In this document: piece by piece, positions 8,724-56,475 of the stretch
How the letters are laid out: every line of letters begins with the position of its first letter
Numbering within the stretch: position 1 is the stretch's first letter
NCBI GenBank assembly: GCA_964016885.1
Contig: OZ024743.1
Location: forward strand, 67,828,001-67,892,000
Direction: 5' to 3'
Length of the DNA: 64,000 bases
DNA from: Eledone cirrhosa
Taxonomy: Eukaryota
Position numbers and translations under genes: made by a program
The notes under the pieces: model-generated
Seen by the model: the letters and a program-made list of their open reading frames with translations, nothing else
Databases searched by the model: none
What the model was told of the DNA's origin: nothing

Positions 8724-8829
<106 letters not shown>

Positions 8830-8959
8830 AAAGTTTTATTTAAGATTGTTGGGTTACAACGAGTAAATATTTCATAACTGATATAAAAGCACTCAACAGT
8901 TTCTGGAGTAGGTTTACGATATTAAACAAATGGAAACTATATTTATAAAACCATATTTA

Positions 8960-9021
8960 TTTCGTTATATATATTTCTGGGATATCATATTAAAAATATG
9001 GTATGCCTTCCTCAGACAAAA
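8960..9021 (-). ncRNA. Type I hammerhead ribozyme (family A, inverted pLTR)
   Basis: Reverse complement of 14881-14942, CUGAGGA core. Confidence 0.75.
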
Positions 9022-11210
9022 TACAATACATAAGCTGTTTTATAAATAATTAGTGACATACCTTGTGATAATGCAACTTCCTTTTAAAAAGTTGATTTGG
9101 TAGTGAAACTGTTATGATAGTTATATAGAAAGAAAACGAAGATGAGAAGAAGAAGATGAGGAGATGTATGCAAATAAAAATAGAAGAAGATGAAGAGATG
9201 TATGCAAAGAAAAACAACGGAGCGAGATAGAGAGACAAGGAGAGAGAGAAATACATTGGTGGTGAAAAACATAGTAGGCTGCTTTTTGACAGATGATCAT
9301 CGTATATGTGAGAGGTTAAGGGAAGGGATACAGTTAAACTAGTGTATAGGAGAAAAAGAAAGAAAGATGATATATTTAAAATATATTAAAAATATATTAT
9401 GTCTCATCCATTTGAATTATCAATTTTTATGAATTAGGTATTATAATGTAAATATCAGTATTCATGAATGAGACACATATCCATAATGTGTGAAAAAAAT
9501 GACCACATGCTCAGTTAAAAATTCTTAGGTCTATAAGCAAAATCTGAGATAAAACTTCAAACATAAGTGCATTCTCGTGAAAAAAGAGAAAAGAGAAGTT
9601 TATCTCAAATTCAAGTTGATAAATATAGACGCACATGTGAACCTACGTGATACGCTGCACTGATTCTTATATTTCATGAACAACTTCAATGCGTTAGAAA
9701 AGATTCCACCCTACATACATTTACATACATATATACATATATATAGACACAAAACATATAAGATATACATTAACATCTAAAATAACATTCCAGCCTCACT
9801 TGCATGATCATCGATCAAGCATAGAGTAGACAACAGATATCAATATTAAAATTAAAAACGCCAAGAATATCTTCGTCACTCCACAGAGTATCTAGGGACG
9901 CAAGAGAACATAGTATGCCACGCATATCGGTCATAGAATCAGAGTCAAAAGCAAACAAAACCAAAATATAAATATAAATATAAATATAAATTTAAAATGT
10001 AATATAAAATGTAGTATATTTACTTAAGGTATTTGACTATTTGTGATATTTGGCGATAAATCTTTCGATTCCTTAAATTTTTTAAAAACCTTTCTGCATG
10101 AATATATAATTAATGAGATTAAATAAACTACCTTATAATTGGCGTTGTCCCCAATCTTTTGAATACATTTTTAAGCTGGATAAACTTCTATAATAAATAT
10201 AAGAGCATTTGTAGAATAAATTTTGAATGATTTCTGCTAAATAAGGCTTGGTGAACAATTTTGGTTTTGTTTGCTTTTGACTCTGATTCTATGACCGATA
10301 TGCGTGGCATACTATGTTCTCTTGCGTCCCTAGATACTCTGTGGAGTGACGAAGATATTCTTGGCGTTTTTAATTTTAATATTGATATCTGTTGTCTACT
10401 CTATGCTTGATCGATGATCATGCAAGTGAGGCTGGAATGTTATTTTAGATGTTAATGTATATCTTATATGTTTTGTGTCTATATATATGTATATATGTAT
10501 GTAAATGTATGTAGGGTGGAATCTTTTCTACCGCATTGGAGTTTTTCATGAAATATAAGAATCAGTGCAGCGTATCACGTAGGTTCACATGTGCGTCTAT
10601 ATTTATCAACTTGAATTTGAGATAACCTTCTCTTTTCTCTTTTTTCACGAGAATGCATATATACTTATGTTTGAAGTTTTATCTCAGATTTTGCTTATAG
10701 ACCTAAGAATTTTTAACTGAGCATGTGGTCATTTTTTTCACACATTATGGATATGTGTCTCATTCATGAATACTGATATTTACATTATAATACCTAATTC
10801 ATAAAAATTGATAATTCAAATGGATGAGACATAATATATTTTTAATATATTTTAAATATATCATCTTTCTTTCTTTTTCTCCTATACACTTAATTAACTG
10901 TATCCCTTCCCTTAACCTCTCACATATACGATGATCATCTGTCAAAAAGCAGCCTACTATGTTTTTCACCATCAATGTATTTCTCTCTCTCCTTGTCTCT
11001 CTATCTCGCTCCGTTGTTTTTCTTTGAATACATCTCTTCATCTTCTTCTATTTTTTATTTGCATACATCTCTTCATCTTCTTCTTCTCATCTTCGTTTTC
11101 TTTCTATATAACTATCATAACAGTTTCACTACCAAATCAACTTTTTAAAAGGAAGTTGCATTATCACAGGGTATGTCACTAATTATTTATAAAACAGCTT
11201 ATGTATTGTA

Positions 11211-11272
11211 TTTTGTCTGAGAAAGGCATACCATATTTTTAATATGATATCCCAGAAATATATATAACGAAA
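11211..11272 (+). ncRNA. Hammerhead ribozyme copy with G8>A core change (family A, 5' pLTR)
   Basis: CUGAGAA instead of CUGAGGA; otherwise identical to 14881-14942. Confidence 0.65.
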
Positions 11273-11322
11273 TAAATATGGTTTTATAAATATAGTTTCC
11301 ATTTGTTTAATATCGTAAACCT

Positions 11323-11345
11323 ACTCCAGAAACTGTTGAGTGCTT
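11323..11345 (+). promoter_or_regulatory. Conserved bulged hairpin, copy 1 (candidate RT priming signal)
   Basis: ACUC-CAG-AAA-CUG-UU-GAGU-GCUU, 5 nt downstream of the position where the 3' pLTR stops. Confidence 0.55.
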
Positions 11346-11414
11346 TTATATCAGTTATAAAATATTTACTCGTTGTAACCCAACAATCTTAAATAAAACT
11401 TTTGCATATATTTT

Positions 11415-11436
11415 GCTCCAATACCGTTGAGCGCTT
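11415..11436 (+). promoter_or_regulatory. Conserved bulged hairpin, copy 2 (candidate RT priming signal)
   Basis: GCUC-C-AAUACC-G-UU-GAGC-GCUU, 4 nt downstream of the position where the inverted pLTR stops. Confidence 0.5.
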
Positions 11437-11454
11437 TATATTATAACTGAAAAA

Positions 11455-13673
11455 ATGGAATTCTTTAAGATCTCTTCTTCTCTAAAAGACATACCTCTAC
11501 CTAGATACAAGGACTTTATTAAACAACTAATAGATAAATCAGACTCCTTTATAAGGAGAATCAGGTGGCGTGCATTCCACTTTGATAAATCTAAATCTAA
11601 CGTAAACGAAAATGCCTCAGACCTAGACAGAGTCTTCAAACCTAAAAAAAATCCACCCCCCAACAAACTTTTGAATGATTTTGAAAACGATATAATTTCT
11701 ATCATACAAGGAGTCAGATTCAAGAGAAACTTCAATGGCCAGGAATATCTGAAAAGCATTAAGGATAATATTGCGAGCTTAGAGAGAGCAGAGAAGATCT
11801 TGGTGAAATCGGACAAAACCAACAACCTCTATGGAGTGGAAAAAGACATGTATAATGGCCTCATACTGAAAGAACTAAGGAAAAAGTACAAGGTAGCAGA
11901 TAAGGCTGAACTTGAGAAAATGAATGTTGAGGCATCATGTATAATGCATGAGTTGGAAATTGAGAACAAAACACAACCTTTCGTGCCTAGGAAACCCAAG
12001 ATCAATATGAAAGATCACAAGAGAAATTTTGAAAATGACTTGCCAGTCAGGTTGATTGCACCATCAAATTCTGACCTGGGTAAACTTAGCAAGAACATTC
12101 TAGACAGAGTGATACAGCAAATTAAGGACTTGAATTGTTTACCTGGCTTGACCTTGTGGAAGGGAACTGGGGAGGTCATTGAGTGGTTTAATGAAATTAA
12201 ATATAACAATAATAATAAATTTATTCAACTAGATATTGCTAACTACTATTCATCCATTACCCCTAATCTACTTAATAAGGCACTAAATTACGCATTCAAA
12301 CATACAGACCTAACTAGCAATGAAATGCAAATTATATTATCGGCAAGGAAAACTTTGATAGAATTTAATAACCAACTATGGACTAGGGCAGATAGAGATA
12401 ATAATGTTGACATTACTATGGGATCATCAGACTCAGCTCAGGTAACGGACCTTGTGGGCCTATTTATGATTAATTCGCTGCATAGGAAAATACCCGGTGT
12501 TACCGGAGGTTTATATAGAGATGACATGCTTTTACTTATTGAAAATAATAACTCTGAACTAAATAAGAAAAGAAAACAAATTATACAATTATTTAATTAC
12601 CTTAATCTAAAAATAGAAATTGAGAATAACCATAGAATAGTCAATTTCCTAACATTTAATCTCAACACATGTCTTCACTATCCATTTCACAAGTTAAATG
12701 AAAACTTGAATTATGTCAATTTTAGCTCCAATCACCCCAGATCTGTCAAAAATACTATAGTGAACTCTGTTCAAAAACGTATCTCTAGAATCTCTTCCAA
12801 TAAAATATTTTTGACGAAAAAGCCCAGTATTATAATGAAGCTTTAGCTAGAGCAGGATATAGTGATAAAATTATGTACATCGATAATAGACAAACTAACC
12901 AAAATAACAACAATTTTAATTACAGTAACAACTTTAACAACTATAATAGAAAGCACTACAATCATTTCAAAAACCAGAAAAGAAATAGAACTAGAAATAT
13001 AATATGGTTTGCCCCCCCTTTCTCACTAAACATTAAAACCCACATCGCTAAACTATTTTTTAATGCTCTTGACAAACGCTTCCCTAGAACACATAAGTAT
13101 CACTCAATTTTTAATAGACATACTATAAAATTAACGTACTCGTCCACCAAAAATTTAGCACAAAATATTAATAGAATAAATAATAGGAATCTAAAACCTA
13201 GCCAAAATACCGAAAATAGCCTAAACAATATTCAACTAAAAAACTGTAACTGTAGAGATAGATCTAAATGTCCGCTAAATAACAATTGCTTAGTTAAAAA
13301 TATAATATACAACTGTAATGTTAGAACTGATTTAAATTCTTTTAATTATGTTGGTTCCACCTCGACAGAATTTAAACTTCGCTATAATAATCACAAAAAT
13401 TCTTTCACGGATCCAAATAAAAAATCCTCAACATCGCTGTCAGGGTTACTCAGGCAACTTAAGCATGATAAAGTTGGATATTCGATGGTTTGGAATATAG
13501 TCTCAAAAGGGATTCCTTTTAATTCCTCTTCTGAGACTTGTGACCTCTGCGCGGAGGAGATATTCTTTATATTAAAATCTAAAAATTCCCTTAATTTACG
13601 AACCAATTTATTCAGCTGTTGCAGACATAGATTGAACTCAACATTTAAATATAAATACAAATTTAAAATGTAA
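11455..13673 (+). pseudogene. Naiad-type PLE polyprotein (RT plus GIY-YIG), split by one frameshift near 12805
   Basis: R.RWRAF, VKSDKTNNLY, KDHK, DIANYYSSI, ITMGSSDSAQVTDLVGLF, GLYRDD, SNHP; then IIWFAPPF, CNC..CPL..C, NIIY..YVG, RYNNH, CDLC.EE. The shifted frame restores IFDEKAQYYNEALARAGY; the usual FLD motif reads FLT (apparent 6-nt deletion). Confidence 0.93.
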
Positions 13674-14880
13674 TATAAAATGTAGTATATTTACTTAAGG
13701 TATTTGACTATTTGTGATACTTGGTGATAAATCTTTCGATTCCTTAAATTTTTTTTAAAACATTTCTGCATGAATATATAATTAATGAGATTAAATAAAC
13801 TACCCTATAATTGGCGTTGTCCCCAATCTTTTGAATAAATGTTTAAGTTGGATAAACTTCTATAATAAATATAAGAGCATTTGTAGAATAAGTTTTGAAT
13901 GATTTCTGCTAGATAAGGCTTGGTGAACAATTTTGGTTTTGTTTGCTTTTGACTCTGATTCTATGACCGATATGCGTGGCATACTATGTTCTCTTGCGTC
14001 CCTAGATACTCTGTGGAGTGACGAAGATATTCTTGGCGTTTTTAATTTTAATATTGATATCTGTTGTCTACTCTATGCTTGATCGATGATCATGCAAGTG
14101 AGGCTGGAATGTTATTTTAGATGTTAATGTATATCTTATATGTTTTGTGTCTATATATATGTATATATGTATGTAAATGTATGTAGGGTGGAATCTTTTC
14201 TAACGCATTGAAGTTGTTCATGAAATATAAGAATCAGTGCAGCGTATCACGTAGGTTCACATGTGCGTCTATATTTATCAACTTGAATTTGAGATAACCT
14301 TCTCTTTTCTCTTTTTTCACGAGAATGCATATATACTTATATTTGAAGTTTTATCTCAGATTTTGCTTATAGACCTAAGAATTTTTAACTGAGCATGTGG
14401 TCATTTTTTTCACACATTATGGATATGTGTCTCATTCATGAATACTGATATTTACATTATAATACCTAATTCATAAAAATTGATAATTCAAATGGATGAG
14501 ACATAATATATTTTTAATATATTTTAAATATATCATCTTTCTTTCTTTTTCTCCTATACACTAGTTTAACTGTATCCCTTCCCTTAACCTCTCACATATA
14601 CGATGATCATCTGTCAAAAAGTAGCCTACTATGTTTTCACCATCAATGTATTTCTCTCTCTCCTTGTCTCTCTATCTCGCTCCGTTGTTTTTCTTTGCAT
14701 ACATCTCTTCATCTTCTTCTATTTTTATTTGCATACATCTCCTCATCTTCTTCTTCTCATCTTCGTTTTCTTTCTATATAACTATCATAACAGTTTCACT
14801 ACCAAATCAACTTTTTAAAAGGAAGTTGCATTATCACAAGGTATGTCACTAATTATTTATAAAACAGCTTATATATTGTA

Positions 14881-14942
14881 TTTTGTCTGAGGAAGGCATA
14901 CCATATTTTTAATATGATATCCCAGAAATATATATAACGAAA
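14881..14942 (+). ncRNA. Type I hammerhead ribozyme (family A, 3' pLTR)
   Basis: UUUUGU-CUGAGGA-[AGGCAUACCAUAUU..AAUAUGAUAUCCCA]-GAAA-UAUAUA-UA^ACGAAA. Confidence 0.75.
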
Positions 14943-14985
14943 TAAATATGGTTTTATAAATATACTTTCCATTTGTTTAATATCG

Positions 14986-15018
<33 letters not shown>

Positions 15019-15019
15019 T

Positions 15020-15200
15020 TATTAAAATAACAGATTAAAGTTGAATCGCTGCTTAACGTTAAAGGGTGAAAGCAGCGATTCTTTGCTTAAAGTTTAATCT
15101 GTTATTTTAATAAATATTTGCTCTACGGTTCTTATATATCTGATATATATTTATCCTCATCGAGCCCTTTTGGGATTTTAGTCTTCAAATTTATCATTAT

Positions 15201-19400: not shown

Positions 19401-21563
<2,163 letters not shown>

Positions 21564-24849: not shown

Positions 24850-27800
24850 CAGACCCAACACATACATATACATACTTACATAGACACAACACATATACAT
24901 ACATACATATACATACTTACATAGACACAACACATATACATACAAACATATACATACTTACATAGACACAACACATATACATACATACATATACATACTT
25001 ACATAGACACAACACATATACATACAAACATATACATAGTTACATAGACACAACACATATACATACATACATATACATAGTTACATAGACACAACACATA
25101 TACATACATATACATAGTTACATAGACACAGCACATACATATACATACTTACATTGACACACACATACATACATACATATACATACTTACATAGACACAA
25201 CACATATACATACATACATATACATAGTTACATAGACACAGCACATACATATACATAGTTACATAGACACAACACATATACATACATACATATACATAGT
25301 TACATAGACACAACACATATACATACATATACACAGTTACATAGACACAGCACATACATATACATAGTTACATAGACACAACACATACATACATACATAC
25401 ATATACATAGTTACATAGACACAACACATACATATACATAGTTACATAGACACAACACATACATACATACATATACATAGTTACATAGACACAGCACATA
25501 CATATACATAGTTACATAGACACAACGCATATACATACATACATATACATAGTTACATAGACACAACACATATACATACATATACATAGTTACATAGACA
25601 CAACACATACATATACATACTTACATAGACACAACACATATACATACATACATATACATACTTACATAGACACAACACATATACATACAAACATATACAT
25701 ACTTACATAGACACAACACATATACATACATACATATACATACTTACATAGACACAACACATATACATACAAACATATACATAGTTACATAGACACAACA
25801 CATATACATACATACATATACATAGTTACATAGACACAACACATATACATACATATACATAGTTACATAGACACAGCACATACATATACATACTTACATT
25901 GACACACACATACATACATATACATACTTACATAGACACAACACATATACATACATACATATACATAGTTACATAGACACAACACATATACATACATATA
26001 CATAGTTACATAGACACAGCACATACATATACATACTTACATTGACACACACATACATACATACATATACATACTTACATAGACACAACACATATACATA
26101 CATACATATACATAGTTACATAGACACAGCACATACATATACATAGTTACATAGACACAACACATATACATACATACATATACATAGTTACATAGACACA
26201 ACACATATACATACATATACACAGTTACATAGACACAGCACATACATATACATAGTTACATAGACACAACACATACATACATACATACATATACATAGTT
26301 ACATAGACACAACACATACATATACATAGTTACATAGACACAACACATACATACATACATATACATAGTTACATAGACACAGCACATACATATACATAGT
26401 TACATAGACACAACGCATATACATACATACATATACATAGTTACATAGACACAACACATATACATACATATACATAGTTACATAGACACAACACATACAT
26501 ATACATAGTTACATAGACACAACACATACATACATACATATACATAGTTACATAGACACAGCACATATATACATACATATACATGGTTCCATAGACACAG
26601 CACATACACATACATAGTTACATAGACACAACACATACATATACATACTTACATAGACACAACACATATACATACATACATATACATAGTTACATAGACA
26701 CAACACATATACATACATATACATAGTTACATAGACACAGCACATACATATACATACTTACATAGACACAACACATATACATACATACATATACATACTT
26801 ACATAGACACAACACATATACATACATACATATACATAGTTACATAGACACAGCACATACATATACATACTTACATAGACACAACACATATACATACAAA
26901 CATATACATACTTACATAGACACAACACATATACATACATACATATACATAGTTACATAGACACAACACATATACATACATATACATAGTTACATAGACA
27001 CAACACATATACATACATATACACAGTTACATAGACACAGCACATACATATACATAGTTACATAGACACAACACATACATACATACATACATATACATGG
27101 TTACATAGACACAGCACATACATATACATAGTTACATAGACACAGCACATATACATACATACATATACATAGTTACATAGACACAGCATATACATACATA
27201 CATATACATAGTTACATAGACACAGCACATACATATACATAGTTACATTGACACACACATACATACATACATATACATACTTACATAGACACAACACATA
27301 TACATACATACATATACATAGTTACATAGACACAGCACATACATATACATACTTACATAGACACAACACATATACATACATATACATAGTTACATAGACA
27401 CAGCACATATACATACATACATATACATAGTTACATAGACACAGCACATACATATACATAGTTACATAGACACAGCACATACATATACATAGTAACATAG
27501 ACACAACACATACATATGCATAGTTACATAGACACAGCACATACATATGCATAGTTGCATAGACACAGCACATACATACATACATATACATAGTTACATA
27601 GACACAGCATATACATACATACATATACATAGTTACATAGACACAACACATACATACATATACATAGTTACATAGACACAGCACATACATATACATATAC
27701 ATATACATAGTTACATAGACACATCACATACATATACATACTTACATAGACCCAACACATATACATACATACATATACATAGTTACATAGACACAGCACA

Positions 27801-28120
27801 TACATATACATAGTTGCATAGACACAGCACATACATACATACATATACATAGTTACATAGACACAGCACATACATATATATCGTTACATAGACACAACAC
27901 ATACATATACATAGTTACATAGACACAACACCTACATATACATAGTTACATCGACACAGCACATACATATACATAGTTACATAGACACAACACATACGTA
28001 CACATATTTACAAGGGCATAACACATACGTATATATAGTTTCATAGACACTACACATATGTACACATCTTTTGACACGCACACAACACATACGTACACAT
28101 AGTTACACATAGACATATGC
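24850..28120. repeat. Minisatellite, 30-42 bp units (atacatagttacatagacacaacacat + variable ATAC), with an 888-bp higher-order duplication
   Basis: Direct reading; identical spurious ORFs at 25149/26037 and 25411/26299. Confidence 0.95.
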
Positions 28121-30140: not shown

Positions 30141-30419
30141 ATAAATTGTATTTGTGTTTCTCACGGATTCCATTTTGTTATATTGTTTGGGATATAGATT
30201 TTAGTGTTCGATGCATTTGTTGTTGTTGTACTTGTTGTTGTTGTATCTGTTGTTGTTGTATATACATATATACATATACATATATATATATATACTTATA
30301 TATAAATATATATGTATATCAATATGTAGAGACATATACGTACATACACCCCCACATATATATTAAATGAAAGCGAGAGAAAGAGAGAGAATTTATATAT
30401 ATATATATACATATATATA

Positions 30420-33345
30420 TATCTTTAAGTCGTTTGGAAGCCTCGACAATGCAAATGGGTAAATTTCCGAGTAACAAGATCCGGTGGTGGAGAGAGAGAT
30501 GTAAGTGGGTGTACGTTGAGATGCGTGGTGTGTATAAGATGTGTAGAAGAATGAAGGAAAGAGTATAAAGAATAACATAAAATAACAACACGAGAGAGAG
30601 TTGCCTTGGGAGAGATTTAATTGTCCCTAAATATTTCGGATTCACATCCATCAATTGGGGTTTTTTTCCGGGGTGGGGGAAAGGTTGTCTGTCGGAAAGG
30701 TGCGAAACGCGTTCTCCGCTGTTTGTTGTTTTGAATATCTGAGGTATTCAGCAGAGCGCGCGTGTGCGTGAAATGGGGTCGGTCGGGCAGAGGTCAGCGG
30801 CCGAATGAGGGAGTGGGGTGGCGCTAGCTGTCAGTCCATGTTCTGCCTGTTTGTTAAATGTTACTGTGTGTGTGTTGTTGTCTCGCTTGTGTGTGTGTAT
30901 GTGTGCGTGTGTTGTTGCCTTGTTCCTCTGTATTGGCAGTGTAGTATGTTCGTATGGTGGAATGCTACTGTGTGTGTGTGCGTGTGTGTGTGTGTAGTTT
31001 TCCCGTTTGTGTGTGTGTGTGTGCGTGTGTTGTTGCGTCGTTTGTTAACTTAAACCAGCCATCTCATCTCGCTTCTCTTGGATTGATTGTTTATTTGCGG
31101 TTGCAGGGGTTTGATAAAAAGCGCTTCCTTGATACGTAACGTGCCGACGTTTCTTTCAGTCGCTAGAATTGTGACAATGGGCCTTCCGTCTTTGTTTCCG
31201 CATTTGTCAATGTGTTTCCGGAAATACGAGGCCCTGGTTTTAGTGCGTTCCTTGATCCGGATGTGCAAAGGTCGGATTGTGCTACCTATGTAGTATTGGT
31301 TGCACCGGTCACATTCTATCTTACATTCTATCTTTGTGTGAAAACACACAAACAGGGACCCGACTTGAAGATCAGGCCCATCGTATCGAGCGTGGAGGGA
31401 CCACTCTACGAAATTCCATGGCTCCTTGCCAGAATACTCAAATCCATCTTAGACACCTTGCCGGGACACGTTAACAGCTCCGAGGAGGTGTTGAAGCGCC
31501 TGCATCAAATGGATCCCGACACCAGAAGGAATAACAGATATGCCTTCAGCCTTGACGTAGTCGCTCTCTCCTCCTCGGTCCCGGCACTCCCGGCCGTCAA
31601 TATACTGATGGAACGCATCTAATCCACCGACCTACACTGCTTCGGGCTCACCACCACTGACATCCACCAACTCCTATCCATCGTCGTCGACAACACCTAC
31701 TTCGGATTCCTTGACCAAACATACCAACAAACCTCGGGATTGCCCATGGGATCAAGCCTGTCGGGTGTGCTAGCGATCTCTTACATGGACAACCTCGAGC
31801 GCAAGGCACTCAACGCCTGCCACCCCAACGCCGTAGCCTTTTTCTCAAGGTACGTGGACGATATCCTCATCCTCACATCTTCCCAAGACACGGCGAACAG
31901 AATCTATGAGACGTTCAACAACACGGACGAGAACATTGACTTCAGTGTTGAACACCCCAACGAAGACGGATCACTTGCCCCCCTCGACTTCCGAATCAAC
32001 ATCACGGAACAGGGAAGGATCCACTGCAACTTCTATCAAAAGGCAGCCTGCAGGGGCCTGTTCGTTCAGTACAAATCCGCCCTCCCTAACAGTGCCAAAA
32101 GCGATTCCTCGAGGTGCTGGAAACGAACGGGTACCCTACCTCGCTCACAGACAGAATAGGAGATACCAGACACAAGAGACAGAGAGGCACCAAAGGCAAG
32201 TGCTTTCTTAAAATGCCACACCTGTGCGAGAATACTACCAACGCTATCCGCAAGGCTATACGGCGGGAGGGCCTCGACATCCACCTGGCCCACTCGGGCC
32301 CCTCCCTGCGAAGATGCCTCTCCAGGAAACCCGGGAAATCTACTTACGCATGCTCCCTCAGAGACTGCCCGATACGCCATGCGAACTGCTGCCTACGCAC
32401 ATACGTTGTGTATAAGATAGAATGTGACAGGTGCAACCAATACTACATAGGTAGCACAATCCGACCTTTGCACATCCGGATCAAGGAACACACTAAAACC
32501 AGGGCCTCGTCTTTCCGGAAACACATAGACAAATGCGGATACAAAGACAGAAGGCCCATTGGCACAATTCTAGCGACTGAAAGATACGTCGGCACATTAC
32601 GTATCAAGGAAGCGCTTTTTATCAAACGCCTGCAACCGCAAATAAACAATCGATCCGAGAGAAGCGAGATGAGATGGCTGGTTTAAGTTAACAAACGATG
32701 CAGCAACAGACGCACACACACACACACACACACACACAAACGAGACAACTACACATACACACGCACACACACACAGTAGCATTCCACCATACGAACATAC
32801 TACACTGCCAATACAGAGGAACAAGGCAACAACACACGCACACACACACACAGTAACATTTAACAAACAGGCAGAGAATGGACTGACAGCTAGCGCCACC
32901 CACTCCCTCATTCGGCCGCTGACCTCTGCCCGACCGACCCCATTTCACGCGCACGCGCGCTCTGCTGAATACCTCAGATATTCAAAACAACAAACAGCGG
33001 AGGACGCGTTTCGCACCTTTCCGACAGACAACCTTTCCCCCACCCCGGAAAAAACCCCAATTGATGGATCTGAATCCGAAATATATAGGGACAATTAAAT
33101 CTCTCCCAAGGCAACTCTCACTCGTGTTGTTATTTTTATTTTACCCTTTATAATCTTTCCTTCATTCTTCTACACATCTTATACACACCACGCATCTCAA
33201 CGTACACTCACTTACATCTCTCTCTCCACCAACGGATCTTGTTACCCGGTGAGTTACCCATTTGCATTGTCGAGGCTTCCAAACGACTTAAATATATTTA
33301 CTTATTATTCCACAATGCTTCAAGCAAACTTCAATACTCTCATAT
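30420..33345 (+). mobile_element. 5'-truncated Penelope/Poseidon-type PLE with inverted arm 30420-31322
   Basis: KTHK..IRPIVS, FSLDVVAL, GLPMGSSLS, RYVDD, VVYKIECDRC..YIGSTIRPLHIRIKEH, EALFI..QPQIN; 30420-31322 is the reverse complement of 32414-33298. Confidence 0.93.
31336..32686 (+). pseudogene. Penelope/Poseidon RT-GIY-YIG remnant with a stop, deletion and frameshift
   Basis: ORF fragments 31212-31622, 31740-32159 and 32114-32686. Confidence 0.88.
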
Positions 33346-33425: not shown

Positions 33426-33492
33426 CCAGCGTGAATCGCATTTCGGCGGGTAGAAAAAGCGAAACGTAACGCAAATATATATATATATATAT

Positions 33493-33950
33493 ACAATATT
33501 AAATAAATGGAAAACTATATTTATAAAACCATATTTATTTCATTATATATATTTCGGGGATATCATATTAACAATATGCTATGCCTTCGTCAGACAAAAT
33601 ACAATATAAACAGTTTTATAGATAAATATATTCGACATACCGTAATAAACATCAACTTCATTCGAAGAGGTTTACTGCTAGCGTAAACCTCTTCAAATGA
33701 AGTTGATGTTTATTACGGTATGTCGAATATATTTATCTATAAAACTGTTTATATTGTATTTTGTCTGATGAAGGCATAGCATATTGTTAATATGATATCC
33801 CCGAAATATATATAATGAAATAAATATGGTTTTATAAATATAGTTTTCCATTTATTTAATATTGTAAATATACTCCAAATATTTGTCGAGTGCTTTTATA
33901 TCAGTTATAAATATTTACTAGTTGTAACCCAACAATTTTAAATATAACTT

Positions 33951-33957
<7 letters not shown>
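33493..33957. mobile_element. Near-perfect fold-back PLE end, related to family A, with two intact HHR cores (33538-33599 minus, 33759-33820 plus)
   Basis: ~185-bp arms around a centre at ~33679; UUUUGU-CUGAYGA-AGG..CCC-GAAA-UAUAUA-UA^AUGAAA; ~90-nt tail on the right arm only. Confidence 0.88.
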
Positions 33958-34005
<48 letters not shown>

Positions 34006-34482: not shown

Positions 34483-37400
34483 CGGTGGTGGTGGTGATGG
34501 TAGTAGTAGAAGTATTAGTAGTAGTAGTAGTGGTGGTGGTGGTTGCGGTAGTAGTAGTAGTAGTGGTGGTGGTGGTGGTGGTGGTACTATTAGTAGTAGT
34601 AGTGGTGGTGGTGGTGCTGGAAGTGTTAGTAGTAGTAGTAGTAGTTTTAGTAGTAGTAGCAGTAGCGGTGGTGGTGGTGGTGGTGGTAGTGGAAGTGGTA
34701 GTAGTAGTAGTGGTGGTGGAAGTGGTAGTAGTAGTAGTAGTAGTAGTGAAGTTGTTGCTGGTGTTGTTGTTGGTGATGTTGTCGGTGTTGTTGGTGTTGT
34801 TGTTGGTGACATTGTTGGTATTGTTGTTGGTGATGTTGGGGTTGTTTTCGGTGTTGTTGGTGGTGTTGTTGTTGCTGTTGTTGTTGGTGTTGTTGTTGGT
34901 GTTGTTGTTGGTGTTGTTGTTGGTGTTGTTGGTGTTGTTGTTGGTGACGTTGTTGGTATTGTTGTTTGTGATGTTGTTGGTGTTGTTGTTGGTGTCGTTG
35001 GTGATGTTGGTGGTGTTGTTGTTGGTATTGTTGTTGGTGTTGTTGTTGGTGATATTGTTGGTGATGTGGTTGGTGTTGTTGTTGGTGATGTTGGTGTTGT
35101 TGTTGGTGTTGTTGTTGGTGTTGTTTTTGGTGTTGTTGGTGTTGTTGTTGGTGACGTTGTTGGTATTGTTGTTTGTGTTGTTGTTGGTGTTGTTGTTTGT
35201 GTTGCTGTTGGTGTTGTTGTTGGTGTCGTTGGTGTTGTTCTTGGTGTTGTTGTTGGTATTGTTGTTGGTGTTGTTGCTGGTGATGTTGCTGGTGATGTTG
35301 TTGTCGTTGTTGTTGTTGTTGTTGGTGCTGTTGGTGTTGTTGTTGGTGTTGTTGTTGGTGTTGTTGTTGGTGTTGTTGTTGGTGTTGTTGGTGGTGTTGT
35401 TGGTGATGATGTTGTCGTTGTTGTTGTTGTTGTTGGTGTTGTTGGTGTTGTTGTTGGTGTTGTTGTTGGTGTTGTTGGTGATGTTGTTGTCGTTGTTGTT
35501 GTTGTTGTTGGTGTTGTTGGTGTTGTTGTTGGTGTTGTTGTTGGTGTTGTTGTTGGTGTTGTTGTTGGTATGGTTGTTGGTGTTGTTGGTGGTGTTGTTG
35601 GTGATGATGTTGTCGTTGTTGTTGTTGTTGTTGGTGTTGTTGGTGTTGTTGTTGGTGTTGTTGTTGGTGTTGTTGGTGGTGTTGTTGGTGATGTTGTTGT
35701 CGTTGTTGTTGTTGTTGTTGGTGTTGTTGGTGTTGTTGTTGGTGTTGTTGTTGGTGTTGTTGTTGGTGTTGTTGTTGGTATGGTTGTTGGTGTTGTTGTT
35801 GGTGTTTTTGTTGGTGTTGTTGGTGATGTTGTTGGTGATGACGTTGGTGTTGTTCTTTGTGTTATTGTTGGTTTTGTTGGTATTGTTGTTGCTGTTGTTG
35901 TTGGTGTTGGTGTTTCTGTTGTTGTTGGTGGTGTTGTTAATGTTGTTGTTGGTGTTGTTGTTTGGGTTGTTGTTGGTGTTGCAGTTGGTGGTGTTGTAGG
36001 TGTTGTTGGTGTTGTTGTTGGTAATGTTGTTGGTGTTATTGTTGGTGTTGTTGTTGGTGGTATTGTTGGTGTTGTTGTTGGTGATGTTGTTGGTGTTGTT
36101 GTTGGGGATGTTGGTGACGTTGTTGGTATTGTTGTTGGTGTTGTTGTTTGTGTTGTTGTTGGTGTTGCTGTTTGTGGTGTTGTAGGTGTTGTTGGTGATG
36201 TTGTTGGTGATGTTGTTGGTGTTATTGTTGGTGTTTTTGTTGGTGTTGGTGTTGTTGTTGGTGTTGTTGGTGGCGTTGTTTTTGCTGTTGTTGTTGGTGT
36301 TGTTGTTGGTGTTGTTGTTGGTGATGTTGTTGGTGTTGGTGTTGTTGTTGTTGTTGTTGGTAGTGATGTTGTTGGTGTTGTTGTTGGTGTTGTTGTCGGT
36401 GTTGTTGATGTTGCTGTTGGTGATGTTTTTGGTGTTGTTGTTGGTGTTGTTGTTGGTGTTGTTCTTGGTGTTGTTGTTGCTGATGTTGTTGGTGATGTTA
36501 GTGTTTATTTGGTGTTGTTGTTGGAGTTGTTGTTGGTGTTGTTGGTGTTATTGTTCTTGTTGTTGTTATAGGTGATGTTGGTGTTATTGTTCGTGTTGTT
36601 GTTGGTGTTGTTGTTGGTGTTGTTGTTGGTGTTGTTGGTGTTGTTGTTGGTGACGTTGTTGGTGATGTTTTAGGTGTTGTAGTTGGTGTTTTTAGTGTTG
36701 TTGTTGGAGTTGTTGTTGGTGTTGTTGTTGGTGATGTTGTTGGTGTTGTTGTTGGTGATGTTGTTGGTGTTGTTGTTGGTGTTTTTGTTGGTGTTGTTGT
36801 TGGTGTTGTTGGAGTTGTTGGTGTTGTTGTTGGATATGTTGTTGGTGTTGTTGTTGGTGATGTTGCTGGTGTTGTTTTTGGTGATGTTTGTGTTGTTGGA
36901 GATGTTGTTGGTGTTGTTGTTGGTGATGTTGTTAGTGTTGTTGTTGGTGTTGTTGTTGGTGTTCTTGTTGGTGTTTTGGGTGTTGTTGTTGGTGATGTTG
37001 TTGGTGATGTTGTTGGTGATGTTGGTGTTCTTGTTGGTGTATGTTGGAGATGTTATTGGTGTTGTTGCTGGTGTTGTTGTTGGTGTTGTTGTTGGAATTG
37101 TTGTTGGTGATGTTGCTGTTTTTGTTTTTGGTGGTGTAGGTGTTGTTGCTGGTGTTGTTGGTGATGTTGTTTTTGGTGATGCTGTTGCTGTTGTAGGTGA
37201 TGTTGCTAGTGTTGTTGGTGATGTTGTTGTTATTGTTGTTGGTGTTGTTGTTGGTGATGTTGATGGTGATGTTGGTGTTTAGTTGGTGTTGTTGTTGGTG
37301 TTCTTGTTGGTGTTCTTCGTGTTGTTGTTGGTGATGTTGTTGTTGGTGCTGCTGTTGATGTTGTAGGTGATGTTGTTGGTGCTGTTGTCGTGTTGTTGTT

Positions 37401-37830
37401 GGTGATGTTGGTGTTTTGTTGTTGTTGGTGTTGTTGGTGTTGTTGTTGGTGTCACTAACAACATCACCAACAACAACACCCCAAACACCTACAACAACAC
37501 CAACAACATCACCAACAACACCAACAACATTATCTACAACATCAACAGCTTCACCAACAACAACTTCACCAACAATAACACCAACAACAGCACCAACATC
37601 CTCACCATCACCACCGACAACAACAACACCAATAACAACAACAACATCAACACCAACAAGAACACCAACAAAACACCGACGTCACCAACAACATCACCAA
37701 CAACAACACCCAAAACACCAACAACAACACCAACAATATCATCAACGACACCAACAACATGATCTACAACATCAACAGCTTCACCAACAACAACATCACC
37801 AACATCAACACCCAAAACTGAAACAACAAC

Positions 37831-37862
<32 letters not shown>

Positions 37863-40519
37863 GAACACCAACAAAATACCAACTTCACCAACAACATCAC
37901 CAACAACATCACCAACAACAACACCCAAAACACCAATAACAACACCAACAATATCATCAACAACAGCAACAACATCATCTACAACTATTTTTTTAGTGTT
38001 GTTTTTGTTGTTGGCGGTGATCTTGCCGGTGTTATTTTTGGTGATGTTGTTGGTGTTGTTGTTGGGGTTGTTGTTGGTGATGTTGTTGTTGGTGGTTGTG
38101 TTGCTGTTGGAGTTTTGGGTGTTGTTGTTGGTGATGTTGTTGTTGCTGAAGCTGTTGATGTTGTAGATGATGTTGTTGGTGTTGTTGATGGTTATTGTTG
38201 GTGTTGTTGCTGGTGTTTTGGGTGTTGTTGTTTGCGATGTTGTTGGTGATGTTGTTGGTGATGTTGGTGTGTTGTTGGTGTTTCATGTTGGTGTTGATGT
38301 TGTTGTTGTTATTGGTGTTGTTGTTGTTGGTTGTGGTGGTGGTGATAATGTTGGTGCTGTTGTTGGTGAAGTTGTTGTTGGTGAATCTGTTGATGTTGCT
38401 GTTTAGTTGTTGTTGTTGTTGTTGTTGTTGTTGGTGATGTTGTTGTTGGTGATGCTGTTGATGTTGTAGGTGATGTTGCTGGTTTTGTTAGTGATGTTGT
38501 TGGTGTTGTTGTTGGTGTTGATGTTGGTGATGTTGTTGGTGTTGTTGTTGGTGTTGTTGTTGGTGATGTTGATGGTGATGTTGGTGTTTAGTTGGTGTGT
38601 TGTTGGTGTTCTTGTTGGTGTTCTTTGTGTTGTTGTTGGGAATGCTGTTGATGTTGTAGGTGATGTTGTTGGTGCTGTTGCTGGGTTTGTTGGTGTTATT
38701 GTTGGTGTTGTTGTTGGTGATGTTGTTGGTGATGTTGGTGTTTAGTTGGTGTTGTTGTTGGTGTTGTTGGTATTGTTGTTGGTGTTGTTGTTGTTGTTGT
38801 TGGTGGTGATGTTGTGGGTGATGTTGTTGGTGGTGTTGGTGTTGTTGCTGGTGTTATTGTTGGTGAGGTTGGTGATGTTGCTGGTGTTGTTATTTGTGAT
38901 GTTGTTGGTGTTGTTGGAGTTGTTGTTGGTGATGTTGGTATTGTTGTTGGTGTTGTTGTTGGTATTGTTGTTGGTGATGTTCCTGTTGTTGCTGTTGTTG
39001 GTGTTTTTGTTGGTTTTGTTGCTGGTGTTATTGGTGTTGCTGTTAGGGTTGTTTTTGGTGTTGTTGCTGTTGCTGTTGGTAACGTTGTTGGTGACGTTGT
39101 TGATGCTGTTGTTGCAGTTGTTGTTGGTGTTGTTGTTGGTGGTATTGTTGGTGTTGTAGTTGGTGATGTTGTTGGTGTGTTTGTTGGTGATGATGGTGAC
39201 GTTGTTGGTATTGTTGTTGGTGTTGTTGTTTGTGTTGTTGTTAGTGTTGTTGTTGGGGTTATTGTTGGTGAAGTTGTTGTTGGTGAAGCTGTTGATGTAG
39301 ATGATGTAGGTATTGTTAGTGATGTTGTTGGTGTTGTTGTTGGTGTTGCTGGTGATGTTGTTGGTGATGTTGTTGGTGGTGTTGCAGGTGTTGTTGTTGA
39401 TGTTGTTGGTATTGTTGTCGTGTCGTTGTTGGTGATGTTGGTGTTTTGTTGGTGTTGTTGTTGGTGTTGTTGGTGTTGTTGTTGGTGATGTTGTGGGTGA
39501 TGTTGTTGGTGGTGTAGGTGTTGTTTTGGTGTTGTTGTTGGTGATGTTGGTGATGTTGTTGGTGTTGTTGTTTGTATTGTTGTTGGTGTTGTTGTTGGTG
39601 TTGTTGTTGGTGTTGTTGAAGTTGTTCTTGGTGATGTTGTTGGTGTTATTGTTGGTGTTGTTGCTGGTGTTGTTGTTGGTGTTGTTGTTGGTATAGTTGT
39701 TGGTGTTGTTGTTGGTGGTGTTGTTGGTGATGATCTTGTTGTTGTTGTTGGTGATTTTGTTGGTTGTGTTGTTGGTGTTATTGGTGTTGCTGTTGCTATT
39801 GTTGTTGGTGTTGTTGTTGGTGTTGTTGTTGGTAATGTTGTTGGTGACGTTGTTGATGCTGTTGTTGCTGTTGTAGTTGGTGATGTTGTTGGTGTTTTTG
39901 TTGGTGATGTTGTTGGTGTTTTTGTTGGTGATGTTGTTGGTGGTGTTGTAGGTGTTTTGGTGTTGTTGATGGTGATGTTGTTGGTGTTGTTGTTGGTGTT
40001 GTTGTTGGTGTTGTTGTTGGTGATGTTGTTGGTGTTGTTGTTGGTGTTGTTTTTGGTTTTGTTGTTGGAGATGTTGTTGGTGCTGTTGTTGGTGATGTTG
40101 TTGGTGTTGTTGTTGGTGTTGTTGTTGGTGTTGTTGTTTGTGATGTTGTTGGTCTTGTTGGTGTTGTTGTGGGTGATGTTGTTGGTGTTGTTGTTGGTGA
40201 TTTTGTTAGTGTTGTTTTTGTTGTTGGTGGTGATGTTGCCGGTGTTGTTTTAGGTGATGTTGTTGGTGTTGTTGTTGGGGTTGTTGTTGGTGGTGATGTT
40301 GTTGTTGGTGGTGGTGTTGTTGTTGGAGTTTTGTGTGTTGTTGTTGGTGATGTTGTTGTTGGTGAAGCTGTTGATGGTGTAGATGATGTTGTTGGTGTTG
40401 TTGATGATATTGTTGGTGTTGTTGATGGTGTTTTGGGTGTTGTTGTTGGCGATGTTGTTGGTGATGTTGGTGTTTTGATGGTGTTCTTGTTGGTGTTGAT
40501 GTTGTTGTTGTTATTGGCG

Positions 40520-40551
<32 letters not shown>

Positions 40552-41100
40552 GATGATGATGGTGCTGTTGTTGGTGAAGTTGTTGTTGGTGAATCTGTTG
40601 ATGTAGATGATGTTGGTGTTTTTGGTAATGTTGTTGGTGTTGTTGTTGGTGTTTTGGGTGTTGTTGTTGGTGATGTTGCTGGTGATGTTTTTGGTGATGT
40701 TGGTGTTTTGTTTGTGTTCTTGTTGGTGTTGTTGTTGGAGATATTGTTGGTGTTGTTGCTGGTGTTGTTATTGGTGTTGTTGGTGTTGTTGTTGGTGTTG
40801 TTGACGGTGATGTTGCTGTTTAGTTGTTGTTGTTGTTGTTGGTGATGTTGTTCATTTTGTAGGTGATGTTGCTGGATTTGTTGGCGATGTTGTTGGTGTT
40901 GTTGTTGGTGTTGTTGTTGGTGATGTTGATGGTGATGTTGATGGTGATGTTGGTGTTTAGTTGGAGTTGTTGTTGATGTTCTTGCTGGTTTGGTGATGTT
41001 GTTTTTGATGTTGTCGGTGATGTTGGTGTTGTTGTTGGTTTTGCTGGTGTTGTTGTTAGTGATGTTGTTGGTGTTGTTGTTGGTGAGCTTGGTGATGTTG
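34417..41100. repeat. Degenerate (GTT/GGT/GAT)n triplet satellite with an internal inverted block at 37453-37986
   Basis: Direct reading; strand bias flips to AAC/ACC within the block. Confidence 0.95.
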
Positions 41101-42723: not shown

Positions 42724-42976
42724 ATAATAACAAATATATTAACAAGTAGTTCATTCAAGCTTACATGACAAAACACTTCTGTATTTATTAATTATTTTGT
42801 GATGAGTTCAGAAAATTAGTTAAAGCTATTTATTATGCATTGCGAAAAGCACAATACACCATAACACTTGTCTTGTTTGAGGTCAGGTGAAGATAGATTC
42901 TGTTATGAATGGGGTTTTGTTTCTTTTTTAGAACGTACCGTCACACATATCTAATAATACCCACATACACATACAT

Positions 42977-43010
<34 letters not shown>

Positions 43011-43022
43011 ACATATACATAC

Positions 43023-45272
43023 ATGCCAGCCATTTCATCCGCAGAGGTTCCCCCCGCCTCGTCCACTCCGCCCTCACTCGCGCCCGTGCTGTCCACCGCT
43101 CCACCACCGTCATCCCACGCCACCGCACACCCACCCACAGTCTCCCCTTCCACATCACCTACTACCCATCCACCCTACCCATCCACCGCACCATCCTCCG
43201 CCTCTTCCGACGCCTCCAGTCCGACTCCTCCACCTCCCAAATTTTCCCAGCCCCATCACTCCCCTCCTTCAAACGCGCACGCAATCCTCGTCCGCAGCTC
43301 CCTACCCACAACCCACGCTCTCTTCCCCCGCCGTTCTCTTCCCTGTTCCAGGCCTAGTTGCAACACCTGTCCCCACATAACCAACACCACCACCTTCCAG
43401 GGTCCCAACGGCCACTCTCTCTCTCTGTCCGGCACGCCTTCCGTTGCACCTCCTCCAACCTAGTCTATGGACTTCGCTGCACGGATTGTAGCGCAACCTA
43501 CTTCGGACAGACTGGACGTCGCCTGGCGGACCGTTTCACCGAACACCTCCGGGATATTCGTCTCGGCGGAAGTTCCCCCATCGCCCGCCACTTTGGCTCC
43601 ACTGGACATTCCGCGCCCCACCTCACAGTCTGTTGCCTACTCCAATGCCACGGAACAACCGCCACGCTCCTCAGGGTCGAACAACGCACCATCTTTACCC
43701 TATAGACCCTCACTCCTCACCCCTATTCATTTAGCCTTCGATCGCCCCCCCCCCCCCCGCCCCGCCCACAACATGTTCCCCACTAACACCACTAATACAC
43801 TCATCTATTTCACCGCCCACCCCACAACTAACAATACTAACACACCCACCGCCGACGACCCTCCCCCAAATAACAATACTAATATCCTTTTCTCCCTATC
43901 ACGCACAAACCCACCGGTACTACCACCACTAACTCTCACCCACACATCCACTCCCATCACCCCACAAATAATACCACTAACATTCCCCCGACACCTCGCA
44001 CACGACCCCCCCCCCACACACACATACACCCACTTATACCGCCCACTCTACACACCCTACCACCACTGACCCCCACTAACACACCCGCATTCAACCCTTT
44101 CCCCACCACCAGTATACTAACACCCACTAACACCCCCTTCTCCACACACACACACCAATACACTACACTCCCTCCACCGTCCCCCACACCTTTCTCTCCC
44201 TCTCCCCGCTCCACCTACACCCCTTCACACACACACACACACATCCCACTAACACCTCTACTAATACACCCCCCTCCCGCCGCACGACCCCCTCTCACTC
44301 CACCTTTCACACCTACCCATCCTTTCCCCTCTCCACCGTACCTCCGCACACACTGACACACCGACTTTCTCCACCTGCCATTCTCCTCTACTGCTGCTAT
44401 TCCTTGACCCTCTGACCACCTCTCCACACACACAGACACACAGACCTCTCCACCTGTCCTTCTCCTCTACCCTCCCTCTGCCTTGACCCTCTGACCATTT
44501 CCTGTTGCGCACGCACCCCACATTTCCCCTCTTCCGACCAACCCAACCACTGATTACACACATTGGACATCGCTCCCACGAATCAACTCCATCACAAGGA
44601 AAATATCCGGCACTCACCACACCCTCTACGGAACTACCTTAGGAACTTACCCACGTACATACACTCACAAACATATTTTTTCCCACACGCCACCTACATC
44701 CACAATACGTATAAACGCCACACACACACGTGCGTACCACCACATATTTACACACTCAGCCTCCAGAATCCCCTATATCTGACCCCTCCCCATCCACACG
44801 CGCACAGCCACACCGACCTACACCCCACCCCACACACATACCATTTCCTGAACATGGAACTTCGTTCTTCCCCCAACTCTCACATTCACATACACACACA
44901 CGTACACCTGCACACATACACCACCTTCAGCCCTCCCCGCTCGGACACCCCGCCTCCCTCTCCCCACTCCACCCGCCACCCCTAGACGCCCCACACCCTT
45001 CCACCACTTGTTTATCTTCATGTTTATTTTTATTTATATTATTTTTTATATTTATTTCCATTTGTACCTCTTCCACCGTTTCCTCTCGCCCCCTTTTTTC
45101 TAAATGTCTCTCCCCCACTCCCCTACAGACCCTTGGAACTCTCTTCCCACTTTTCGCCTGAAGAAGGGCTTATGCCCGAAACGTCGTTCCCCCTACACAC
45201 TCGCAAGAGCGTGAAACTAATAAACCTTTGCTTGTACTGCCTCTCTGTTTTGTTCCGGTTCCATTTTTTACT
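43023..45272 (+). mobile_element. 5'-truncated Neptune-type PLE (EN remnant ~43280-43705, long C/A-rich 3' UTR)
   Basis: LVRSSL..PCSRPSCNTCPHI zinc linker, then FRCTSSNLVYGLRC..C...YFGQTGRRLADRFTEH..PIARHF; HHR and AATAAA at the 3' end. Confidence 0.85.
45155..45188 (+). ncRNA. Minimal type I hammerhead ribozyme
   Basis: CUGAAGA-A-GGGC-UUAU-GCCC-GAAA-CG-UC; stem I is weak. Confidence 0.75.
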
Positions 45273-46459: not shown

Positions 46460-46495
<36 letters not shown>

Positions 46496-50618: not shown

Positions 50619-51032
50619 ACATGGAACTCTTTTAACCATCTTTTGATCCTATATATTATGTATACTCCAGTCCTACAAACTGTAGAGTTCTTCTTATCCG
50701 ATATCTGCATTGCTTTATTGTACTACAATAAAAGTCACCTCCTACATATATATATATATATAAATATGCACTCTGTTAAATATAAGATGAAATTTGTTAT
50801 CACTTTGAGCTCTTAATCCAGCACTTCACTCAGTAATGTGATATATAGGAAATAATTCATCAATGGAGGTAACTGTATTTGCTAGTGATTATGAATGTCT
50901 ATTTCGCCTTTAGTTCTGGATTGAATTTTTATTTTTTGTAAAATGTTGAATATATCTTTCTATGTTCTTTCTATGTCTCACTGATGCCCTCTTTTTCTCT
51001 CTCGCCGTCAGTCACTATTACAAGCGAATCTC

Positions 51033-53232: not shown

Positions 53233-53591
53233 GACCATGCGACAGGTTGTACTGGGTTACATACATACATAATACATACATACATACAAACATACATATA
53301 TATATGCCCTAAGTATCGAGTCCTCTGGTGCGTTATGGTCCACCTGGTTTCTTACTACACTTTCTTTGTTATATATATATATATATATATCTACGGTTCT
53401 TATATATTTGATATATATTTATCCTTATCGAGCCCTCTTTTGATTTAAGTCTTCAAATTTATTATTATTACTGTATATATATATATATATATATATATAA
53501 CGAAGGAAATGTGGTAAGGAACCAGGTGGACCATAACGCACCAGAGGACTCAATACTTAGGGTAGTAGAGTGGGTAATAGGAACGAGTAGG

Positions 53592-56428: not shown

Positions 56429-56475
<47 letters not shown>

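Follow-up and report, generated by a model that had tools for sequence, protein, structure and literature searches.

Duplicated bulged hairpins adjoin the two end sites of Hydra-type PLE insertions in Eledone cirrhosa and may position twin priming

The twin ends of Hydra-type PLE insertions in Eledone cirrhosa, each lying just before one of two copies of a small bulged hairpin, are real and general for the Hydra-type elements examined. A preliminary description of the 64,000-nt stretch of DNA analysed here (the window, to which coordinates refer) had tied two fixed end points to two hairpin copies, and this association was found to hold across the families examined. We favor the reading, with a probability of roughly 70%, that the two hairpins are RNA signals positioning the RT for twin priming on one transcript. 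The choice of start site in PLEs, together with the inversion and the one-sided tail of their insertions, is a long-standing question, and the sole biochemical study, on the element PAc, located two start sites and, in the part of the article available, no signal (PMC11167929). A doubled, covarying motif of 22-30 nt, present across several animal phyla, makes a direct mutational test possible. It also allows the boundaries of elements to be predicted for annotation and accounts for the many short, inverted copies without an ORF that lie in (TA)n.

Results

Identity and layout of the family A element

Family A has a unit of about 3.7 kb with a long pLTR, and two A units lie 3,715 nt apart. Self-comparison of the window resolved two repeats in the insertion: 8821-9967 is an inverted arm corresponding to 11411-10258, and 9972-11317 recurs in direct orientation at 13643-14987. 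The parts are as follows:

8821 to 9967, minus strand: inverted, 5'-truncated arm ending at the long site, with antisense motif 1 at 8887-8909
11455 to 13673, plus strand: RT-GIY-YIG ORF of family A, with one frameshift near 12804-12846 in the window copy
13643 to 14987, plus strand: 3' pLTR, which ends at the short site and joins (TA)n

In families A, B and C the ORF places the RT at the N-terminus and a GIY-YIG-type domain at the C-terminus, and alignment of natural intact or near-intact copies gave identities to the A protein of 53% for B and 39% for C. Among intact copies, open frames reach 742-750 codons. This C-terminal domain, aligned for A-C and set beside the description available in PMC8557442, is without CCHH and carries CxxC and CxH beside the E and N residues. 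DKT is present in all three families, and the CxCx5C linker was found, its last Cys being altered in one aligned C copy and kept in the C copy of the window. The N-terminal RWK position reads RWR in A, RWI in B and RWR in C; RWK itself occurs in L250, a marine contig described below. A hammerhead core is present in the pLTR of families A-D, where both core and stems of the putative ribozyme were recognized, and the insertion target of these elements is (TA)n. Pfam gave no match for the divergent ORFs of A-C, and Rfam, run over 8800-15100, gave no family, left the hammerhead unscored and returned one chance snoRNA match (E 0.64). By domain order, DKT, CxCx5C and hammerhead, the element is assigned to the Hydra-type PLEs. 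Naiads are described as having an N-terminal EN, DKA and no canonical hammerhead (PMC8557442, as far as available). The label of Naiad PLE given in the preliminary description had to be rejected, being contradicted by the RT-first domain order, by DKT instead of DKA and by the hammerhead core in A-D.

The window also holds a PLE-like remnant at 42909-45200, with a compact canonical hammerhead at 45158, and a broken RT element on the minus strand at 20387-21515, PLE-like by its motifs. Minisatellite arrays at 24851-28107, 34751-41085 and 58129-63991 (units of 41/109 nt, 9/12 nt and 27 nt) give rise to spurious long ORFs.

Insertions stop at two sites, each shortly before a hairpin

The junction between pLTR and ORF of family A contains these features:

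11316 to 11317, plus strand: short end site, TA common to the target, 5 nt before motif 1
11323 to 11345, plus strand: hairpin motif 1, ACTC-CAG-loop-CTG-TT-GAGT-GCTT, kept in 33 aligned read-through copies
11318 to 11411, plus strand: tail of 94 nt between the end sites, with motif 1 inside it and an AATAAA that precedes the long end by 20 nt
11406 to 11411, plus strand: long end site, ATATAT common to the target, 3 nt before motif 2
11415 to 11436, plus strand: hairpin motif 2, GCTC-C-loop-G-TT-GAGC-GCTT, 19 nt before the ATG

Both motif copies thus stand where they had been claimed, at 11323-11345 and 11415-11436, and as they had been written. The right end of the insertion was likewise confirmed at 14987, equivalent to 11317 and 5 nt before motif 1. 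The left, inverted end does lie near motif 2; its proposed position (8822, equivalent to 11410, with a gap of 4 nt) is corrected to 8821, equivalent to 11411, with a gap of 3 nt. Both ends join (TA)n, as described.

With a query placed upstream of both end sites, 30 family A loci yielded 48 ends, 26 of them at 11313-11317, 20 at 11411 and two at 11265. Across families A-D, after de-duplication, 162 of 170 non-read-through ends lay no more than 12 nt from the start of a motif (50/50 in A, 56/59 in B, 16/16 in C and 40/45 in D). The loci were taken from the top of the score ranking (25-30 of 40 matches in each search) and not at random, and the first B query favored long ends. The termini are therefore not scattered relative to the motif, in agreement with the initial proposal. 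The exact gaps between end and motif are 5 and 3 nt in A, 4 and 6 or 4 nt in B, 5 and 3 nt in C, and 4 and 6 nt in D; that is, ends in these families occur at two sites 3-6 nt before a hairpin, joined to (TA)n. The spacing between the motifs ranges from 78 to 92 nt and the end sites lie 78-94 nt apart, and other TA tracts in these AT-rich leaders are unused as ends.

In the other families of the window the corresponding features are:

50665 to 50693, plus strand: motif 1 of family B within a long inverted arm whose long end is at 50747; the short end of the same insertion is near 46493, minus strand
53544 to 53571, minus strand: family C motif 1; the short-end site 53577, in use at 56433, precedes it by 5 nt, and the long end is near 53497

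A second hairpin past the long end in B and C, which the preliminary description had left as a prediction, is present in read-through copies directly after the long end, and the same holds for family D, which was found later by the twin-motif pattern.

All eight mapped ends have 2-6 nt in common with (TA)n, for which the chance expectation is 0.16-0.29 per site; the product for the eight ends is about 6e-6, a hand-computed value for families that are not independent, and a few D long ends have only 1 nt in common. This shared TA fits a short annealing, but earlier self-insertion could also have left it there.

One short and one long end per insertion

Exact family A junctions counted genome-wide numbered 2,589 short and 2,679 long, with none in reversed controls. 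The arms, 5'-truncated to varying extents, are joined head to head, and the pairs so formed combined a short with a long end in 15 of 16 cases in A and 12 of 14 in D (the other two being short plus unclassified), the queries for both families lying upstream of both sites; B gave 15 short plus long, one long plus long and one long plus other. The same rule was seen among outward-facing A neighbors at most 8 kb apart in the first 147 Mb of contig C1 (97 short and 100 long places), where 53 of 56 pairs were short plus long, three short plus short and none long plus long (binomial p 4e-13 versus free choice). Thirty-two of those 53 pairs span 600 nt or less. An ORF-less insertion of this kind lies in the window:

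33492 to 33963, no strand assigned: mini-insertion of an A subfamily, made of an inverted short arm and a long arm, with motif 1 at 33872-33895

The ORF-bearing arm may take either end, since full pLTR arms at A loci ended four times at the long and once at the short site; in the window it is the short one.

These results bear on the possibility that the motif marks RNA 3'-end formation, with cleavage or polyadenylation just upstream, and that the RT simply starts at RNA ends. In A and B an AATAAA does precede the long end by 20-21 nt, and polyadenylation had been named at the outset as a possible cause of the long ends. However, six of the eight ends, those at the long sites of C and D among them, have no AATAAA within 45 nt, no poly(A) run was present at any of the 162 A-D junctions, no Rfam family matched, and separate RNA species would not yield short plus long ends in 53 of 56 pairs. 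Polyadenylation does not account for the termini, and we regard RNA 3'-end formation as an improbable role for the motif.

Fold and covariation of the hairpin

The motif has the general form RCTC-stem-loop-TW-GAGY-RCT. A regular expression run over both strands of the window gave four matches, every one at such junctions, and a twin-motif pattern gave 60 matches genome-wide against none in the reversed control, which indicates more than chance occurrence. The spacing of the twin pattern leaves out A, B and most of C, and part of the 60 matches look chance-made or rearranged; many of the ORF-less ones consist of one real motif with a chance or inverted upstream half. The whole 261-nt junction folded no better than its shuffles (z -1.08); the signal is a small local hairpin and not a junction-wide fold. 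Predicted hairpin energies are weak (-2.7 to -11 kcal/mol), and the upper stem of motif 2 of A comprises one pair only.

Covariation was followed in 16 instances from 10 families, in which upper-stem pairs 1, 2 and 3, not demanded by any search, are paired in 15/16, 15/16 and 12/16, against 4-6/16 in slid controls; pair 1 exchanges C-G for T-A and pair 2 occurs in all four Watson-Crick types. Shuffling gave p values of 0.0015, 0/20,000 and 0.002, which are not strict probabilities, the families being related and the set hand-chosen. The nearest-5'-arm rule chose the wrong arm for instances I and H, and both stay counted. Moreover, 36 of 55 pattern rows, many of them copies of the same family, have at least two upper pairs beyond what the pattern demands. 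As judged from these comparisons, the upper stem covaries across families, and outside the motifs and the hammerhead the junction DNA of A-D barely aligns. G-U pairs outnumber A-C pairs by six to two, with sense folds not uniformly better, a difference that weakly suggests the sense strand, and RNA over DNA, as the functional form.

In family A, a 9-bp inverted repeat (11353-11361 and 11441-11449) encloses the long site and motif 2 in the predicted fold. Pairing of the two motifs through their near-palindromic 3' halves, as a strand-swap duplex, was also considered and was dropped, as the central bases of such a duplex mismatch in C and L250.

Hammerhead, arm 5' ends and template

Upstream of motif 1 the pLTR of family A contains:

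11105 to 11139, plus strand: TATA-like and Inr-like sequence, with 15 of 41 A arm 5' ends at 11124-11139
11210 to 11274, plus strand: putative type I hammerhead ribozyme-like motif (core 11217, GAAA 11255-11258, palindromic TATATA helix III), its stems drawn by eye

In A-D, about 105 nt separate the hammerhead core from motif 1 downstream. In the 5' pLTR of the window its core (11217-11223) carries a G-to-A change, absent from the copies at 14887 (3' pLTR) and 9015. About 70-90 nt upstream of the hammerhead, arm 5' ends accumulate at a TCA resembling an Inr (15/41 in A, 13/76 in B and 21/46 in D), and 11124-11139 is a candidate transcription start. Family C gave no arm 5'-end peak with a longer reference; a seeming peak was an artefact of a short one. 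Given the 5'-end peak and the short spans (600 nt or less), most insertions have the appearance of run-off products of an mRNA leader left uncleaved. For the ORF-bearing arms, a template in which the ORF precedes both motifs would be needed, either a tandem read-through or a circle such as has been proposed (PMC4209133, in the part available).

The motif could instead be read as DNA: the GIY-YIG EN would bind the cDNA, or the near-palindrome GAGYRCTY, cut the TA tract a few bases upstream and so resolve a longer intermediate at two places. The tail has indeed been ascribed to EN-mediated resolution (PMC8557442, available part), the Penelope EN needed the tail in a plasmid, as recounted in the accessible text of PMC11167929, the 3' half of the motif is near-palindromic in the sequences at hand, and the G-U excess is small. 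Yet it is the 5' arm and upper stem that covary, as a fold-back would, while the central pair of the palindrome does not; the arm 5' ends pile up at the Inr-like site, as run-off cDNA would; and the tail boundaries of PAc coincide with RT start sites in vitro (same article, as far as seen in its text). A role at the DNA level thus appears unlikely, though with somewhat better prospects than RNA 3'-end formation.

Other families and relatives beyond this genome

In family F, the ends of which come from a handful of loci, a second hairpin likewise lies past the long end; its loop is enlarged to about 55 nt, and subfamilies differ in it by compensatory changes. A 183-nt tandem repeat of both F motifs plus leader (L200-L204, G000:C2:169702762-169703562), in which no hammerhead core was found, is possibly a rolling or template-jumping product. 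Two loci (L221 and L243) are perfect fold-back insertions centred just before F motif 1, joined tail to tail and not head to head.

Beyond this genome, a protein-only search found the marine contig L250, in which a hammerhead core and both motifs precede the ATG, motif 1 having a long upper stem with its outer base unpaired. This was the one locus among 357 candidates of a metagenome scan with protein alignment; protein-based scans of viral and prokaryote contigs gave no relative. In the six Hydra consensus sequences of File S7 of PMC8557442, as far as available and inspected by eye, the motif is clear in Hydra-2_Amil, Hydra-1_Ajap and Hydra-2_Ajap, with two copies at the start of the Hydra-1_Ajap consensus; Hydra-1_Crog has a near match and a compensatory variant, and Hydra-1_Amil and Hydra-1_Obim have weak or degenerate copies. 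The hosts of the motif-bearing published consensi, by the same inspection, are a coral, a sea cucumber and a copepod. Six 9-mers of the motif 3' half occur six times in the portion of that supplement available, where line breaks can hide matches, three times in Hydra termini and three in Naiad or Chlamys sequence without a full hairpin.

Family N (30416-33340) is a non-Hydra PLE with RVT_1 and GIY-YIG matches and a CCHH-type EN. Its two fixed ends are separated by about 40 nt, and 10 of 10 pairs, scored by eye, are short plus long; the Hydra-type motif is absent. Its main short end has no base in common with (TA)n, and its ends often share none. By eye, and in this one family, each end is followed by a repeated TTAT-NN-TT(C/A)CAC and a 4-bp hairpin with a 3-nt loop, read in the read-through copies L312, L317, L318, L320, L327, L333, L338 and L339.

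A further possibility is that the hairpins serve the leader in another way, such as RNP assembly or translation control, and that TA tracts nearby, left by old self-insertions, fix the ends. In its favor, the ATG follows motif 2 by 14-70 nt, the twin ends of family N come without the motif, and PAc nicks AT-rich DNA in its own pLTR (PMC11167929, available text). Against this, both ends keep their 3-6 nt to the motif in A-D although the spacing of the motifs varies from 78 to 92 nt, and the remaining TA tracts of the AT-rich leaders go unused. We give a leader function of this kind little chance of explaining the ends.

Discussion

Proposed mechanism

Our findings point to hairpins that act as positioning signals for the RT in twin priming. 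Each of two internal start sites would have a hairpin immediately on its 3' side, and each hairpin would be bound by the element's protein, for which the predicted dimer of the PAc protein offers a model. The endonuclease would cut both strands within (TA)n, and each 3'-OH would be placed on the UA tract 3-6 nt upstream of a hairpin, where it may pair with 2-6 nt. As the pairing of ends suggests, both cut strands would then prime cDNA on the same transcript in one event; the two cDNAs would run toward the RNA 5' end and be joined, which would produce the inversion, and the tail would correspond to the distance between the two start sites. Lying downstream of its own start, a hairpin would not be copied from that site, which would be why short arms have no hairpin and long arms one, and why both occur together only at the pLTR-ORF junction; on this view, the majority of insertions would be dead ends, copied from the mRNA leader.

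A more far-reaching model, which we offer tentatively and hold to be clearly less probable than the positioning role itself, is that the two copies form an RNA "ruler" that loads two RT-EN protomers, that a staggered (TA)n cut anneals both ends to internal UA templates, and that concerted twin priming proceeds without a conventional second-strand step. Other PLE clades would follow the same logic with duplicated signals of their own, as in family N, and the trait might be ancestral and shared with telomerase; PLE RTs are the sister group of telomerase RT. Since family N has twin ends without the motif and a short end without a shared base, neither the motif nor annealing would be needed for twin ends in general.

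Comparison with known systems

RNA structures that position an RT at a fixed distance are found in the 3' stem-loops of stringent LINEs and SINEs, the R2 3' UTR and telomerase RNA elements. Those structures are single, and the LINE stem-loop lies upstream of the start and is copied. By analogy, the hairpin described here would differ in being doubled, internal and downstream of each start.

Among PLEs, the Hydra clade (Craig et al., 2021, PMC8557442) is described, in the part available, as C-terminal EN+ with (TA)n targets, a hammerhead and a tail ascribed to the EN. The elements studied here resemble it in domain order, DKT, CxCx5C, lack of CCHH, hammerhead, (TA)n target and inverted 5'-truncated arm with a tail; they are set apart from the published descriptions, as available, by the unit of about 3.7 kb, the long pLTR and the 78-94 nt tail, and the word "hairpin" has no occurrence in the text of PMC8557442 that could be obtained. 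With Naiads, as described in the same portion, they share the (TA)n preference and the inverted and tandem structure.

The closest functional counterpart is PAc, a Poseidon PLE of Anolis, for which extension of both target strands from two internal RNA sites bounding the tail was obtained in vitro, the start site not being homologous to the target (Frangieh et al., 2024, PMC11167929, as far as available). In both systems two start or end sites set the tail length, the target is AT-rich and a hammerhead lies upstream of the sites. In PAc, according to the same text, the sites are inside the ORF, 30-40 nt apart, with an AC-rich stem-loop and no duplicated signal described; inspection of PAc by eye gave no duplicated hairpin. 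Here, in contrast, the sites are in the 5' leader, 78-94 nt apart, on UA tracts each followed by the same bulged hairpin; 2-6 nt are common to (TA)n at all eight ends, whereas PAc acts without homology; and the pairing of one end of each kind was seen genome-wide, the start sites being deduced from genomic ends alone.

The preliminary description had presented the signal as not previously described. This stands for the duplicated hairpin and the one-of-each rule, and not for twin internal starts and the tail, which were known from PAc (PMC11167929, available part). The openly readable literature searched, including PMC3846280, PMC4209133, PMC13282606 and bioRxiv 10.64898/2026.07.22.740005 as far as available, gave no description of the motif, the 3-6 nt distance or the one-of-each rule. 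With respect to the sources available, therefore, twin internal starts and the tail are already known, and what is new is the duplicated covarying hairpin, its fixed distance to the ends and their strict pairing.
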